Virus record (IMG/VR): IMGVR_UViG_2974541498_000001
Coordinates: 32,001 to 96,000 of that record
DNA length: 64,000 nt
DNA from: a virus
Lineage: Duplodnaviria > Caudoviricetes
Strand: one strand, 5' to 3'
Below the pieces are notes generated by a model. It did no database searches and had not been told where the DNA came from. It saw nothing but the letters and a program-made list of their open reading frames with translations. Shown in pieces: positions 24,302 to 42,699 of the stretch; position 1 is the stretch's first letter, and each line of letters starts with the position of its first letter. The position numbers were made by a program, and so were the translations under genes.

Positions 24302-24316
24302 TTAGATCACCTTCTA

Positions 24317-24388
24317 TGCTCTAATAGGGGATCGAACCCTAATCAAAAGTTTAGGAAACTCTTATGCTATCCATTACACCATTAGAGC
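24317..24388 (-). tRNA. tRNA-Arg(CCU)
   Basis: cloverleaf GCTCTAA..., anticodon loop TTCCTAA, T-loop TTCGATC. Confidence 0.85.
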
Positions 24389-24479
24389 AGAATAAGTATG
24401 GTTCTATTGTACCATACTTATATTACTTTAAATACCTATTTATTTAAAAAATATTAAATTAATCATAGTAATAAGTTGT

Positions 24480-24671
24480 TTATTTCCCCGTAATAAATAC
24501 AGTCCCTAAAGGAAATTCATATTCCTCTGCAAAATCATCATCTGGGGAAACTTGTAATTCTGGATCATAATTAGGAATTTCTAAAGCTCCCCCTGTCGAA
24601 TGATTATAGATAGCAACTTCTGTTTCACCATCATATTTCTCTAATTCCTTAATTAAATCTTTAACTTTCAT
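24480..24671 (-). CDS. small hypothetical protein (MKVKDLIKELEKYD family)
   Basis: 63 aa, ATGA overlap. Confidence 0.7.
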   Translation of the reverse strand: MKVKDLIKELEKYDGETEVAIYNHSTGGALEIPNYDPELQVSPDDDFAEEYEFPLGTVFITGK

Positions 24672-25387
24672 TTTAAATACCCGATAAAATATTGATTATC
24701 TTCCTTTTGCGAAGTAGGTGTAATATCTGTAATAACTTCATATAAAACCTTCTCTGGATTGTTATTAAATTCCTTGTAATAATAAAGAGTTCCAATATTA
24801 CTAGTATGGTTATAGATAAAGTCTACGATATCATCTACTGTAATAATATATTCTTTACATTCAGTAAAATACCCGCGACTATCTTCTTTAATAGCAGAAG
24901 TAATAGCAATCATAGTCCCATTACTCCAACCAATATTCTTCACTAGCAGACCAGTATTTAAAGGTAACCCAACACTATTATGATTTGCTTCAAGCTTATC
25001 TGACTGTTCAAATAAATCTTGAATAGTTCCTAATACTTTCTTGTGCATTTCCTTCTTAGAGTTTGGAACTACTACTCCGCCATGAATAGTATCAATAGGC
25101 TTATTTTTATCCTGAAAATAGAAATCTTGCCAATCATCTGCTAATAAATCCTCTTGGCTAGGAGACCAGCCTACCTGTAGTTCCCCCTTACTATTTTTTA
25201 AATCAATATGGGGGTTAATTGTAACTTCCTTATCAGTTAGACTAAATCTTAAAGTATCATTATTTATCTTACTCTTAGGAATAACTGATCCGCTTTCAAG
25301 GTAAATAAACATATTCTTACCATTCCAGCCTTTTCGATAGGCTTTATTACCTCTCATAACACTCTTCAATACTTCATAGAATTTCAT
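24668..25387 (-). CDS. DUF2829 / Tad2-like N-terminal domain fused to unknown C-terminal domain
   Basis: MKFYEVL...GNKAYRKGWNGKNMFIYL...PHIDLKN..G....GWSPSQEDLLADDW. Confidence 0.75.
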   Translation of the reverse strand: MKFYEVLKSVMRGNKAYRKGWNGKNMFIYLESGSVIPKSKINNDTLRFSLTDKEVTINPHIDLKNSKGELQVGWSPSQEDLLADDWQDFYFQDKNKPIDTIHGGVVVPNSKKEMHKKVLGTIQDLFEQSDKLEANHNSVGLPLNTGLLVKNIGWSNGTMIAITSAIKEDSRGYFTECKEYIITVDDIVDFIYNHTSNIGTLYYYKEFNNNPEKVLYEVITDITPTSQKEDNQYFIGYLK

Positions 25388-25651: not shown

Positions 25652-26014
25652 TTACCAATTCTCTCTATATACTTCTCCTAGAAGGGTCTCTTTACCATCC
25701 CAACCAGTATGATATTCTTCTTTAGGAGCTTGTCCTAATTCAATACATTCTTTAATACTATTTGCTTCAGCATCTTCGACAGTACCATCGTCTAAATATT
25801 TAGTATATAGATAAGTAGTATCTGGGAAGCCTTCGATCTCGCTATTCTTAAATAAAATACTGAATTCTACGGAGTCATCTAAATTCTTAATAGTGTATAG
25901 ATTAGCTATTGGGGATTCCTTAATATCCCAATTCTTAGGATTAAATCCTTCTTTAACCAGTAAAACATCGATTAAAAATCCGGCATATTTATTTTTCATT
26001 AAAAATACCTCCAT
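25652..26014 (-). CDS. hypothetical protein
   Basis: ORF after TTGACT promoter; start may be MKNKY after GGAGG. Confidence 0.65.
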   Translation of the reverse strand: MEVFLMKNKYAGFLIDVLLVKEGFNPKNWDIKESPIANLYTIKNLDDSVEFSILFKNSEIEGFPDTTYLYTKYLDDGTVEDAEANSIKECIELGQAPKEEYHTGWDGKETLLGEVYRENW

Positions 26015-26067
26015 ATTCTATACTTATTCTAGCATATTTATGTTTTTAAGTCAATCTATTCCCAAAA

Positions 26068-26458
26068 TAAAAAGGATAGTTCCCTATCCTTCAACATGAG
26101 GTTTATCCTTTCGAGTTCCCTCGATAATTCCACTATTAAAAGTGTACTCAGGTAGAGTATGACTGGATAGTCACCCAACCTATAACCATCTAATGCCAGC
26201 ACTAGATTTTGGGATGATCCATATTAGGAATCGCCTTATTGCTTTATTCCCCATGTTTGACCTGACCAAGGAAGATTACTAATTAATGTCAGGTAGCAAG
26301 ATCATTGTCTTACCTTATTTACCTAATTATTCCGAAGTTACTTAGGCCATTCCTATTATTTATGTATACTACCCAATAAGGGATAATTTTTAAGAATAAT
26401 AATATTAATTATTATTTACTTAATTTCAGCTTATTGGTAGATTTCAATATCTTTATCA
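26068..26458 (-). ncRNA. large structured non-coding RNA candidate (~390 nt)
   Basis: TATAAT at 26464..26469, multiple long-range helices and tetraloop hairpins, terminator 26070..26091, no minus-strand ORF in the track. Confidence 0.65.
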
Positions 26459-26547
26459 ATACTATTATAAAGTAGTCGATCGCACTAGTTTAGTAGTTCA
26501 AAAAACAATAAGTGCCTTTAACTTGTGCTTATTCGATTATATGACTC

Positions 26548-27060
26548 CTATTTTAATACGTCTTCTGGCGCCGGTGTCCATGGCGTTGCAATTGTACCTT
26601 TCTCCAATTTAAAGAACCTAACATATACGTCCATTGTTCCATACAAATCAAAAGCATATGCGTTACCATTAAATGAAATCGTTCTTGAAACCCGTTGCCA
26701 ATCACTAGTTGGATTCATACCGGCCAGCTGATCGGGTTCTGCCCAATTTTCCCATCCTAGTCTATCAACTTTGCCGGTTCCTTTAACATCGACCGAGATA
26801 ACATAATTTCCACTTGTTGGAAAATTAAAAAAGGAATAAAATCCTGAACTATTGTTAGTTCCAATGACATGTAGCGCTACTTCGCCACTATCCATTGTAA
26901 CTTTCTGGATTGTACCTCCCGAATTACCGGTAATGCCACCCCACGAAGAATCATATGAACCCTTAATCAGATTACGCCCGTAAACCAGCCTGCCATTGCT
27001 CATCACCTTGTCTACTGGCATGCCATCAACAACACATGCTCTACCGTTGATCGTTGACAT
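26548..27060 (-). CDS. carbohydrate-binding-like tail module protein
   Basis: GRNLIKGS...KLEKGTIATPWTPAPED, same module as in 9041..11251; higher GC than flanks. Confidence 0.7.
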   Translation of the reverse strand: MSTINGRACVVDGMPVDKVMSNGRLVYGRNLIKGSYDSSWGGITGNSGGTIQKVTMDSGEVALHVIGTNNSSGFYSFFNFPTSGNYVISVDVKGTGKVDRLGWENWAEPDQLAGMNPTSDWQRVSRTISFNGNAYAFDLYGTMDVYVRFFKLEKGTIATPWTPAPEDVLK

Positions 27061-27064
27061 TCAA

Positions 27065-27286
27065 TCACCCCTTAATAAAGTAGACGCCAGACTTGTCAGC
27101 CAATGCGTCATATTCAGCCTGCGAGATGATATTGATGACGGCGTCTTTACCAGGATCACCCTTATCCCCCTTAATCGTGCTGACAGCGTCTATTTTCTTT
27201 TCTGTATCCTGAACACCCGTTTCAATATGATTAAGCTTTTCTGCTGTAATTATTTCTTCACTTACCCAATTATGTGGGTTATACAT
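27065..27286 (-). CDS. small tail-associated protein with collagen-like triplets
   Basis: Y.PH.W....IITAEKLNHIE.GV, GDKGDPGKD, ISQAEYDALADKSGVYFI. Confidence 0.7.
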   Translation of the reverse strand: MYNPHNWVSEEIITAEKLNHIETGVQDTEKKIDAVSTIKGDKGDPGKDAVINIISQAEYDALADKSGVYFIKG

Positions 27287-27338: not shown

Positions 27339-27346
27339 TGATTTAG

Positions 27347-27387
27347 AAAAAGCTAACCCCATATCTGATTGATATATGTTAGCCTTT
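27347..27387 (-). terminator. terminator of tRNA operon
   Basis: AAAGGCTAAC...GTTAGCTTTTT. Confidence 0.6.
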
Positions 27388-27434
27388 AAAATTAATATAG
27401 TTTAATGGGTTTATATTTCTTATGATTCTGATAA

Positions 27435-27520
27435 CGGAAAGTACAGGACTCGAACCTGCAATACCCAAGGGGTACAACGAGTTAGCAACCCGCTTCAATA
27501 CCAATTATGATTAACTTTCC
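27435..27520 (-). tRNA. tRNA-Ser(GCU)
   Basis: anticodon loop TTGCTAA, long variable arm, GTTCGAGTCC. Confidence 0.9.
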
Positions 27521-27533
27521 ATGATAATGATAA

Positions 27534-29849: not shown

Positions 29850-29916
29850 ATTACTTATTTCTATAATCTTATTATAGCATACTATCTAATATTCTGTCAA
29901 GCACTTTATAATAAAA

Positions 29917-29963
29917 AGTAGCAATAGGAATCGAACCTATTAATCACCCTACCAAGGGCTACT
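29917..29963 (-). ncRNA. anticodon-less mini tRNA-like RNA
   Basis: AGTAGC/GCTACT stem, CCT-TGGT-AGG D-like arm, intact ATAGG-TTCGATT-CCTAT T arm. Confidence 0.5.
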
Positions 29964-30036
29964 AGCGATTACTAACAATCGATAAACACATCTTATCATA
30001 TTAATTTAAATATGTCAAGATATTAAAACAAATATT

Positions 30037-35749: not shown

Positions 35750-36544
35750 TTGGAAGGATTAAAAGATTCTCAAAAGGTTGATATTGACTTATTCAAAGCG
35801 TATGTACCAATTAGTAAAACAGCATCCTCTGATAGTGAGTGGTATATATCAGGAGTTGCTTCTACTAACACAAAAGATTGGGATGGGGAAATAGTTGACC
35901 CAAGCACCTTAGATATTACTTATCTAATGAAGCAGGGGAAAATAAACTATGAGCATAATAATGAATTAGATCATATTATTGGGGAACCTACTGATAATAC
36001 CTATATTGATAAGTCAGGGCTTCATCTAGAAGCTATGCTATATAAAAATATGCCTTTAGCACAGGATGCTTGGAAATTAGCTAATGCTATGGAAAAGTCC
36101 CATGCTAAACGATCATTAGGATTCTCTATAGAAGGTATTGGTAAGCGATCAGCAAATCCTAATGTATTTTCAAAAGTAAAAGTAATGAATGTTGCTATTA
36201 CCGCTAACCCAGCCAATCCAGATGCTTCTTGGAAAACCTTTAAGAAATCAGTTGATGTTAATAGTGAATTAGCAAAAGCTTATTCTGAAATGTCAACAGA
36301 AACTGGATCAGAAATAAATCCAAGTGATATGCAAGGAATTTCTAGTTTTCGTAAGGAAGACTTACCGGGGGCACTTACAACATTAACTTATGCAATGAAA
36401 AGTGAAAATTGTTCAGAACTGCTAAATTATGCTCAGAAGGCCCTAGAAGATAGTGGAAATATTACTAAAGATGTTAAGCAATTAATTCTGCAAGTTGGCC
36501 GAGGAGTATCCAAAGAAACAGCTAAAAATTTTCTAGATGAATAA
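35750..36544 (+). CDS. prohead protease
   Basis: GVAST...D..GE, INYEH, LGFSIEG, VAITANPANP.A.W. Confidence 0.92.
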   Translation: MEGLKDSQKVDIDLFKAYVPISKTASSDSEWYISGVASTNTKDWDGEIVDPSTLDITYLMKQGKINYEHNNELDHIIGEPTDNTYIDKSGLHLEAMLYKNMPLAQDAWKLANAMEKSHAKRSLGFSIEGIGKRSANPNVFSKVKVMNVAITANPANPDASWKTFKKSVDVNSELAKAYSEMSTETGSEINPSDMQGISSFRKEDLPGALTTLTYAMKSENCSELLNYAQKALEDSGNITKDVKQLILQVGRGVSKETAKNFLDE

Positions 36545-41174: not shown

Positions 41175-41788
41175 TGGAAGAAATACCAGGATTATTTAAA
41201 GAACCTAAAAAGTATTTAGACGCCCTAGGAAGTTCAATATCTAACAGTATTATTAATGAAGTTGGAAAAGCTTCCATAGATGAAGGGGCAGATTCTTATC
41301 AAGTAGAGCCTAATTACCTATCAGTAACAGCACATAGAGTTAATAACTTAGGAATACTTGATTTAAAGCCATATTTTGAAAGTAGTCCCTTTGTTAAAAC
41401 TACTAAAGATGGTGGCTGGTATTTAAGAGTTCCTATTAGACGATTAACTTCTGGAATGTCTTCACAATTATATAAAGAAGCGAGACAAATTGAATTACAA
41501 TCCGATCAAACTATGAAAACCGCTTGGATAAATTCCTTATATTCCGGAAGACAAGAATCTTCTATTGCCTCTTTAAACTATACACCAGTATCTAATAACT
41601 TAACGAGAATTAAAAATGATGCAGGTAGCGGTACTAAATATATTGCCTTTAGAACGGTATCAAACAAGTCTAATCCAGCTAGTTGGATTCTTAATAGAGG
41701 TCAAGCAACAGAAGATAATATGAGTAAGACTTTATTAAAGAACTTAGATAGATTAATTAGCTATCGACTACAACATTTAAATGACTAG
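41174..41788 (+). CDS. neck/tail completion protein
   Basis: DLKPYF..S...K..K.GGWYL.VPIR, YIAFRTVS.KS...SWILNR. Confidence 0.7.
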   Translation: MEEIPGLFKEPKKYLDALGSSISNSIINEVGKASIDEGADSYQVEPNYLSVTAHRVNNLGILDLKPYFESSPFVKTTKDGGWYLRVPIRRLTSGMSSQLYKEARQIELQSDQTMKTAWINSLYSGRQESSIASLNYTPVSNNLTRIKNDAGSGTKYIAFRTVSNKSNPASWILNRGQATEDNMSKTLLKNLDRLISYRLQHLND

Positions 41789-41805
41789 GTAAAGGAGGTA
41801 ATCTA

Positions 41806-42699
41806 TTGACTAATATTGCTTCACAAGATACATTCATTAAACAAAATATAGAAAATAGAATAAATGCCGTAATAGCTAGTGGATCTTCTAATTCTAAGAA
41901 CTATATTATAACTGAGGCATTAAAAAACATAGAATCCGATGTCTCGGAAAGCTTTATAAACACCTATTGCGGAGACAATCCAAGCAATCAAATAGAAGTT
42001 AGTTACTCGTTCCCTCAAAATCGAGAAAACTTAGACGCTTTGGTAATTGTCAATGCGGGTGCTATGACCGAAGATGATAAAAGCTTAGGAGACAACTATA
42101 GTTCTTATAATTCTAGAGGTACTGGATTATCTACAGAAACAGCAAAAGTTCAATACGATATAGATAATGATATTTACTTCATAGAAACATCAGAACCTGT
42201 TAGTGAATTCGTTAAATGTGATGTCTTCAGTCAAGGAATAGTATTAACAGATGAAAAGTATCTATATCAAAATAAGTTGTTCCTTAGTTCCGGGGCAAAA
42301 CCTGCTTTAGGTGTTGATGTTACATTCTCATATATTCCTTTAATTGAAGGGTCTAATAGTCAGGATATGGCAGGATATAATATTGGATTTAATGCCACAG
42401 AGACAACAACAGTCTCTATCGTATCTAACCATATAGATACCCTTCGTTGTTTATCTGCTATTGTTGCCTTCTCTCTAATATCATTAAGAGCTACTAATGA
42501 ACAAGATGACATATTTGCTATTCAAACTATTAGTAAAAAAGGTCTTAGTACTATCCAAGATACATTTGGGATAAAGAATGTTGATGAGAAGCCTTTATAC
42601 GCTATTCAATATTCTTTAAATACTAAATCAACCTATTCTATTAGTTATAATGACGTTAATGCAATTAAAGAATTAGAAATAAATTTAAGGAGCGAATAA
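41806..42699 (+). CDS. tail terminator-like protein
   Basis: synteny before sheath; SN..DT.RCL motif. Confidence 0.65.
   Translation: MTNIASQDTFIKQNIENRINAVIASGSSNSKNYIITEALKNIESDVSESFINTYCGDNPSNQIEVSYSFPQNRENLDALVIVNAGAMTEDDKSLGDNYSSYNSRGTGLSTETAKVQYDIDNDIYFIETSEPVSEFVKCDVFSQGIVLTDEKYLYQNKLFLSSGAKPALGVDVTFSYIPLIEGSNSQDMAGYNIGFNATETTTVSIVSNHIDTLRCLSAIVAFSLISLRATNEQDDIFAIQTISKKGLSTIQDTFGIKNVDEKPLYAIQYSLNTKSTYSISYNDVNAIKELEINLRSE

Follow-up and report, generated by a model that had tools for sequence, protein, structure and literature searches.

The roughly 390 nt of non-coding DNA described here, on the minus strand of a 64,000-nt window (the whole stretch of DNA that was analysed), are, on sequence comparison, a mosaic of separate non-coding pieces, not one evolutionary unit. 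One of these pieces, a 263-nt core, may, with its terminator, make up a self-contained gene for a non-coding RNA, exchanged horizontally and located where RNA operons end, the niche of ROOL, GOLLD and the T4 RNAs rnaC and rnaD. This is the reading we favour, tentatively and at somewhat less than an even chance. The original prediction had seen a single ornate, pseudoknotted RNA of ~390 nt; its elements are present, but they make up a composite of two modules, and the fold is no better than chance.

The window comes from a 136.6-kb virus record representing a Herelleviridae phage of Levilactobacillus/Lactobacillus, whose nearest public relative is Levilactobacillus phage ENFP1. Around the flagged stretch the minus strand carries genes and tRNAs, and the stretch itself lies between a tail-type gene cassette (26548-27286) and a hypothetical gene of 115-120 aa (25652-26014). 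Comparisons below also draw on Lactobacillus phages LP65 and 3-521 and on two related IMG/VR phage contigs, L006 and L007. The surrounding features are:

27434-27521: tRNA-Ser, on one side of the flagged stretch
27345-27390, minus strand: hairpin (GGCUAAC ... GUUAGC) with a U tract, directly after tRNA-Ser; L006 has the same
26548-27286, minus strand: two small ORFs (170 and 73 aa) resembling C-terminal parts of tail-fibre/host-range proteins (PHROG 5499, 1330 and 4440)
26026-26054, minus strand: promoter of the downstream gene (TTGACT, 17 nt, TAGAAT with TG), from a promoter scan with 10 of 12 matches
24668-25387, minus strand: Tad2-like protein of 239 aa with an N-terminal PF11195 domain (Thoeris anti-defence 2; E = 2e-22, residues 1-87) and ~150 C-terminal aa to which no domain is assigned
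24316-24389: tRNA-Arg, on the other side of the flagged stretch

The Tad2-like anti-defence gene lies ~700 nt downstream of the core, and because relatives carry a mix of RNA-like modules at this place, the neighbourhood of the core is an accessory island made up of tRNA genes, small RNAs and genes for counter-defence. Such a setting, with tRNAs on both sides and the Tad2-like gene nearby, speaks for an RNA gene.

Some further observations concern the surroundings themselves. The tail-type cassette has a higher GC content, is wedged between tRNA-Ser and the RNA region, and is found in L006/L007 and not in ENFP1. More than 60 variants of the 115-aa protein encoded downstream of the core occur in public assemblies; the promoter of that gene is kept in ENFP1, L006 and 3-521, follows the terminator and is separate from the RNA. 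At the head of the tRNA cluster ARAGORN reports a 'tRNA-???' of 92 nt with a two-base anticodon (29915-30006, minus strand), which the Rfam tRNA model does not call.

Within the flagged stretch the following pieces were distinguished:

26450-26500, minus strand: promoter-like segment with TATAAT (26464-26469), ~86-90% identical in L006 and LP65, also present in L007
26369-26440, minus strand: hairpin 1, 72 nt with an A/U-rich inner stem, a module apart from the core
26092-26354, minus strand: core, a 263-nt non-coding indel unit with a predicted two-domain fold, found elsewhere in ENFP1 only
26063-26092, minus strand: intrinsic terminator with a 9-bp stem, a GGAA loop and a U tract, from a terminator scan

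Hairpin 1 and the core come apart in both directions: the former occurs without the core in 3-521 (L002:2001-2082) and in L006/L007, and ENFP1 has the core without hairpin 1. For hairpin 1, RNAalifold on three sequences returned 25 pairs, two of them with compensatory changes. The core matches ENFP1 (L001:3001-3270) at 99% identity and is exactly absent from L006/L007, where hairpin 1 directly abuts the terminator. Against L006 the indel is exact (L006 position 2923 corresponds to 26355 and 2925 to 26091), and its borders match the outer ends of the two predicted closing helices, A and B, described below. In ENFP1 the core begins 4 nt past a CCA-less tRNA-Ser and one terminator serves the whole operon, and the terminator (26063-26092) is identical in ENFP1, L006 and L007. 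No paralogue of the core was found in the phage's own genome.

The core is also non-coding in a gene-dense phage. The longest ORF in the flagged stretch, of 48 aa, has a GTG start, lacks a Shine-Dalgarno sequence and reads on across the terminator; none is credible, and a protein-coding reading of the core was rejected since it has no ORF. Its GC content is 0.36-0.40, against 0.28-0.32 in the neighbouring genes, and so is raised towards the tRNA level. An RNA gene is favoured by this non-coding nature, by the discreteness of a unit that is present in the window phage and ENFP1 and precisely missing from L006/L007, and by the possession of its own terminator. Two other readings, as a tandem-repeat antitoxin and as a MITE, were rejected on reading the sequence by eye, in which neither tandem repeats nor terminal inverted repeats were seen.

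The block formed by the core and the terminator (26063-26363) differs from ENFP1 by three substitutions in 301 nt, and identity drops to 80-94% directly on both sides of it. The flanks are 84-88% identical to ENFP1, with 84% over the 3-kb downstream alignment, and the eight tRNA genes common to the two phages are 86-97% identical (39 of 613 nt mismatched); at the tRNA rate, a count of at most three mismatches over 301 nt would have a probability of ~4e-6. Divergence so far below that of the tRNAs and flanks was one of the reasons for considering an RNA gene. It implies either recent exchange or extreme constraint. Since the block is better conserved than the tRNA genes, the preferred reading of its identity is that lineages exchanged it recently, perhaps under selection as well, and conservation alone therefore does not establish function. 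Read as a mark of recent transfer and not of constraint, the same number weighs against the RNA gene.

The substitutions themselves all leave the predicted pairs in place. Position 26274 changes a G-C pair to G-U, position 26158 an A-U pair to G-U, and position 26099, in helix B, a G-U pair to G-C in ENFP1; all three are transitions, with the predicted pairs kept by wobble and no double change among them. This behaviour is compatible with a structure and was counted in favour of an RNA gene, but it carries no statistical weight.

Recency is equally what would be seen if the core were non-functional mosaic filler, that is, foreign non-coding DNA brought in beside the shared terminator by illegitimate or microhomology recombination, exchanged recently and so far undecayed, with hairpins such as any A/U-rich 263-mer would have. 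We regard this as a real possibility, though on the low side. The close relatives L006/L007 manage without the core, and there are repeats at the junctions (AAGGAUA at 26110-26104 and in the terminator stem; AAUAAU at the left border), both of which would suit filler. Phage genomes, on the other hand, rarely keep 263 nt of useless DNA, and the insertion of this piece falls precisely between RNA elements, with the same terminator retained in two different left contexts; that all three substitutions preserve predicted pairs also sits poorly with filler.

The predicted fold of the core has the following parts:

26225-26355, minus strand: 5' domain, closed by helix A (26355-26344 with 26236-26225, 11 of 12 pairs) and enclosing hairpins at 26314-26295 and 26294-26260
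26093-26257, minus strand: 3' domain, closed by helix B (26257-26249 with 26101-26093), which crosses helix A
26207-26188, 26173-26160, 26159-26145, 26144-26131 and 26124-26111 (GGAA loop), minus strand: hairpins inside the 3' domain

Every helix named in the original prediction proved to be complementary on the minus strand at the positions given for it. This applies to the outer stem of hairpin 1 (CUACCAAUAAG, 26440-26430, with CUUAUUGGGUAG, 26380-26369), to UAGGAAU (26355-26349) with AUUCCUA (26231-26225), to AACAUGGGG (26257-26249) with CCUCAUGUU (26101-26093), and to CCUGAC/GUCAGG and the run of small hairpins. TATAAT is likewise found at 26469-26464 on the minus strand, and the terminator is in place, called by the scan at 26092-26071 with its U tract. 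The UAGGAAU helix, our helix A, is longer than first reported, with 11 of 12 pairs between UAGGAAUgGCCU and AGGCgAUUCCUA. It does cross the AACAUGGGG helix, our helix B, so that the proposed pseudoknot is topologically possible.

Helix A is the minimum free energy structure of 26225-26355 folded alone (-30.6 kcal/mol), the local hairpins of the 5' domain have pair probabilities of 0.57-0.86, and helix B reaches a pair probability of 0.9 in the nested ensemble. Summed up, the pseudoknotted model comes to -72.6 kcal/mol, before any pseudoknot penalty, and the best nested fold to -67.8 kcal/mol; since the penalty is left out of the former figure, the crossed and nested models are about equal in energy.

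The significance of the fold is a different matter. The z-score of the minimum free energy is -3.1 for the 391 nt and -2.07 for the core alone, the former being carried largely by hairpin 1 and the terminator. Among 39 random 263-nt windows from the same strand of this genome the mean z was -0.45 (sd 1.1), and five of them (13%) reached -2.07; uninterrupted long-range helices of at least 9 bp arose in 93.5% of dinucleotide shuffles of the core. On the tests run, the fold of the core is indistinguishable from chance and from the background of this genome, which counts against an RNA gene, and the background level of both the z-score and the long helices suits filler. The two strands do differ, with -67.8 kcal/mol (z -2.07) for the transcribed one and -54.9 kcal/mol (z -0.92) for the opposite one. 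This asymmetry and the raised GC content fit an RNA weakly; they were entered for the RNA gene, and they stand against filler.

Helices A and B cross in the same topology as P3/P7, and the insert is preceded by U and ends in G. With the presence/absence polymorphism and its clean borders, these traits would suit a decayed or minimal mobile group I intron, for which L006/L007 would be the intron-less allele; Herelleviridae phages commonly carry such introns. We nevertheless consider an intron very improbable. No match to Intron_gpI (RF00028) or to any other intron was found at E<=10, and there is no P1/P2 or internal guide ahead of helix A, which lies 1-3 nt from the left border and leaves no room for one. 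The last G is 1 nt from helix B, too close for a G-binding site. Moreover the core interrupts no gene, sitting as it does between non-coding elements, and the left 'exon' in ENFP1 is a different sequence, a tRNA trailer.

A compact ROOL-like RNA, as had been suggested at first, found no support in Rfam. When cmscan was run on the window with all 4227 families nothing reached gathering level, and on 25900-26700 nothing relevant appeared at E<=10. ROOL itself (RF03087), for which membership is set by a gathering score of 99.1 bits, was not found in the whole 136.6-kb genome at E<=1. The same library did detect a full-length ROOL with 128.4 bits in the LP65 tRNA cluster (L073:226-800), a positive control that makes the negative result in the window meaningful; blastn of the core against this LP65 ROOL gave noise only. 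The LP65 ROOL (NC_006565.1, about 52.0-52.6 kb) is unannotated in its record. Membership in GOLLD likewise fails, with no match among all Rfam families and a core of 263 nt against more than 800 nt, and tmRNA, RNase P, 6S, T-box and riboswitches were rejected for want of an Rfam match, ARAGORN finding no tmRNA either. In the Rfam copy used, RF01998 is group-II-D1D4-1 and not GOLLD, and RF01687 is Acido-Lenti-1.

The resemblance to these two families is therefore one of place. The background given with the original prediction, that ROOL and GOLLD occur in phages near tRNA islands and have no known function, is correct. ROOL is a pseudoknotted, multi-stem phage RNA in or beside Lactobacillales phage tRNA clusters, as the core is, although the knot of the core is predicted only. 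With 263 nt (390 with hairpin 1), no profile match and no covariation support, the core differs from ROOL, and its predicted fold of two multistem junctions with one crossing helix pair has neither the size nor the architecture of that family. GOLLD, too, is a phage and prophage RNA often found near tRNAs, and is expressed at lysis; it is large, however, exceeding 800 nt with a conserved 3' half, and the core has no Rfam match to it. That the core might be a compact or truncated relative of either family is hardly credible to us: the common niche, a Lactobacillales phage beside tRNA genes with ROOL in the LP65 tRNA cluster, is outweighed by the lack of any local or global Rfam match at E<=10, by the absence of ROOL genome-wide where the LP65 control works, by the noise in blastn against the LP65 ROOL, and by a size less than half that of either family. 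At the level of sequence and structure profiles, such kinship is refuted.

Homologues of the core were then sought more widely. Among 50,697 phage records blastn found ENFP1 only, and exact-pattern scans of IMG/VR with five core k-mers and the terminator gave nothing beyond chance k-mer matches for the core. Scans with one 17-mer each found none in GTDB genomes and none beyond chance k-mer matches in JGI metagenomes, and blastn against 401 Lactobacillales genomes returned only matches of 22-29 nt, in places without an RNA family. Covariance models of the 3' domain (R1) and the 5' domain (R2) identified no homologue in five related phage records, 151 Lactobacillales genomes and 24 loci; weak R1/R2 matches in the window, at 35931-36106 and 41758-41878, were dismissed because they lie inside long ORFs. 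Across all searches run the core is thus found in two closely related phage lineages only. No diverged homologue was found, and there is therefore no covariation evidence for the core. The narrow distribution and the fact that the only homologue is 99% identical both weigh against an RNA gene, and the failure of these searches to find relatives other than ENFP1 fits filler.

How the core might be expressed would differ between the two phages. In ENFP1 it would be the 3' trailer of the tRNA operon, released by tRNA 3' processing, presumably by RNase Z, the enzyme that acts on CCA-less tRNAs in Bacillus. In the window phage the hairpin at 27345-27390 probably ends the tRNA operon ahead of the tail-type cassette, and the core is therefore not simply a tRNA trailer there. 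It would instead lie behind hairpin 1 and downstream of the TATAAT segment, and a single transcript of ~390 nt, running from that segment to the terminator, is plausible. A sigma-70 consensus scan called no promoter at the TATAAT of 26450-26500, because it has no -35 hexamer, and the lack of a canonical promoter ahead of the core in the window phage is a further argument against an RNA gene. The context in LP65, where the same segment lies ~45 nt upstream of the virion structural gene orf91, suggests by analogy that it is a phage promoter.

The same arrangement would allow the core to act in cis, as a structured 3' trailer that controls how the upstream RNA operon is processed, terminated or stabilised at its 3' end, or as an attenuator of read-through into the downstream accessory genes (25652-26014, Tad2-like). 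The core always adjoins the terminator, it is physically the tRNA-Ser trailer in ENFP1, and its copies of both strands of the terminator stem (ACUAUCC, 26171-26165; AAGGAUA, 26110-26104) could compete for pairing. A role in cis nonetheless seems to us distinctly unlikely: L006/L007 have the same terminator without the core, a strong, conserved promoter past the terminator serves the downstream gene separately, no riboswitch, T-box or leader family matches, and roughly 0.1-0.2 shared 7-mers would be expected by chance.

Returning to the exchangeable RNA gene, we infer that the core is transcribed and processed to a stable RNA of ~265-300 nt, which would fold into two multi-hairpin domains closed by the crossing helices A and B. 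With its terminator it would act as an 'RNA moron' that comes last in RNA-only transcription units of Herelleviridae phages infecting Levilactobacillus. Its function might be that of a trans-acting scaffold or decoy, binding some factor, from host or phage, that takes part in tRNA biology, translation or defence. The layout in ENFP1, with the core 4 nt after tRNA-Ser and a single operon terminator, recalls rnaC and rnaD of T4 (species 1 and 2 RNAs), a likeness of arrangement. Those are small stable RNAs of about 120-140 nt and unknown function, cut from the tRNA precursor transcript in the tRNA cluster. Phage morons resemble the core in being discrete blocks with their own terminator, present or absent among close relatives and with a history unlike that of their flanks, but classical morons encode proteins and the core block has no ORF.

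A bolder version of this reading would found a new class of pseudoknotted phage RNA, narrow in distribution, with the core as its first member: an RNA-only moron that moves between phages, docks where tRNA or RNA operons end and acts in trans during infection, for instance, beside the Tad2-like gene, as a decoy or scaffold in the biology of tRNAs, translation or anti-defence. This we hold to be doubtful. If the core is real, it would be a small and tractable addition to the unexplained phage RNAs that travel with tRNA genes (ROOL, GOLLD and T4 rnaC/rnaD), and it would show that phages exchange such RNAs as independent cassettes. At 263 nt, with a cultivable host-phage pair available (Levilactobacillus brevis and ENFP1-type phages), it also comes in natural alleles with and without the core, so that testing its function would be straightforward. 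Should it be only mosaic filler, it would be a warning that chance alone produces ornate-looking helices in A/U-rich phage DNA.

In relatives, varied RNA-like modules occupy the slot behind tRNA-Ser. In 3-521 it contains an element of ~135 nt, which we call 'family X', followed by hairpin 1, and the ROOL inside the LP65 tRNA cluster is another such module. That relatives fill the same slot with other RNA modules (hairpin 1, 'family X', ROOL) argues for an RNA gene.

By eye it seemed possible that the 5' domain of the core belonged to 'family X'. This was rejected, as the nhmmer profile of the family misses 26090-26362 even at E<=100. The near-invariant blocks of the family, GTTCCGAGAAGC and CTATCTGGTCTAACCTCGGTTGAGATAG, do not occur in the window with up to 3 mismatches allowed; to judge from these comparisons, 'family X' is unrelated to the core.

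'Family X' is in its own right a conserved, uncatalogued RNA-like element of 65-150 nt in Lactobacillus phages, with no Rfam match at E<=0.1 and no tRNA called there by ARAGORN. It is carried by 3-521, LP65, Semele, Nyseid, SA-C12, Satyr, Maenad, Lenus, 8014-B2 and 11 IMG/VR contigs, a set that includes several Lenusvirus phages. Copies lie at these places:

L002:1871-2005, L073:1133-1285, L076:1135-1288, L074:1125-1300, L075:1125-1301 and in L096-L106: 'family X' element

The element sits flush between tRNA genes or between terminase subunit genes, and a short form of it is without the middle hairpin. The second block (CTATCTGGTCTAACCTCGGTTGAGATAG) is a hairpin in whose loop CUCGG could pair with CCGAG, a predicted pseudoknot.
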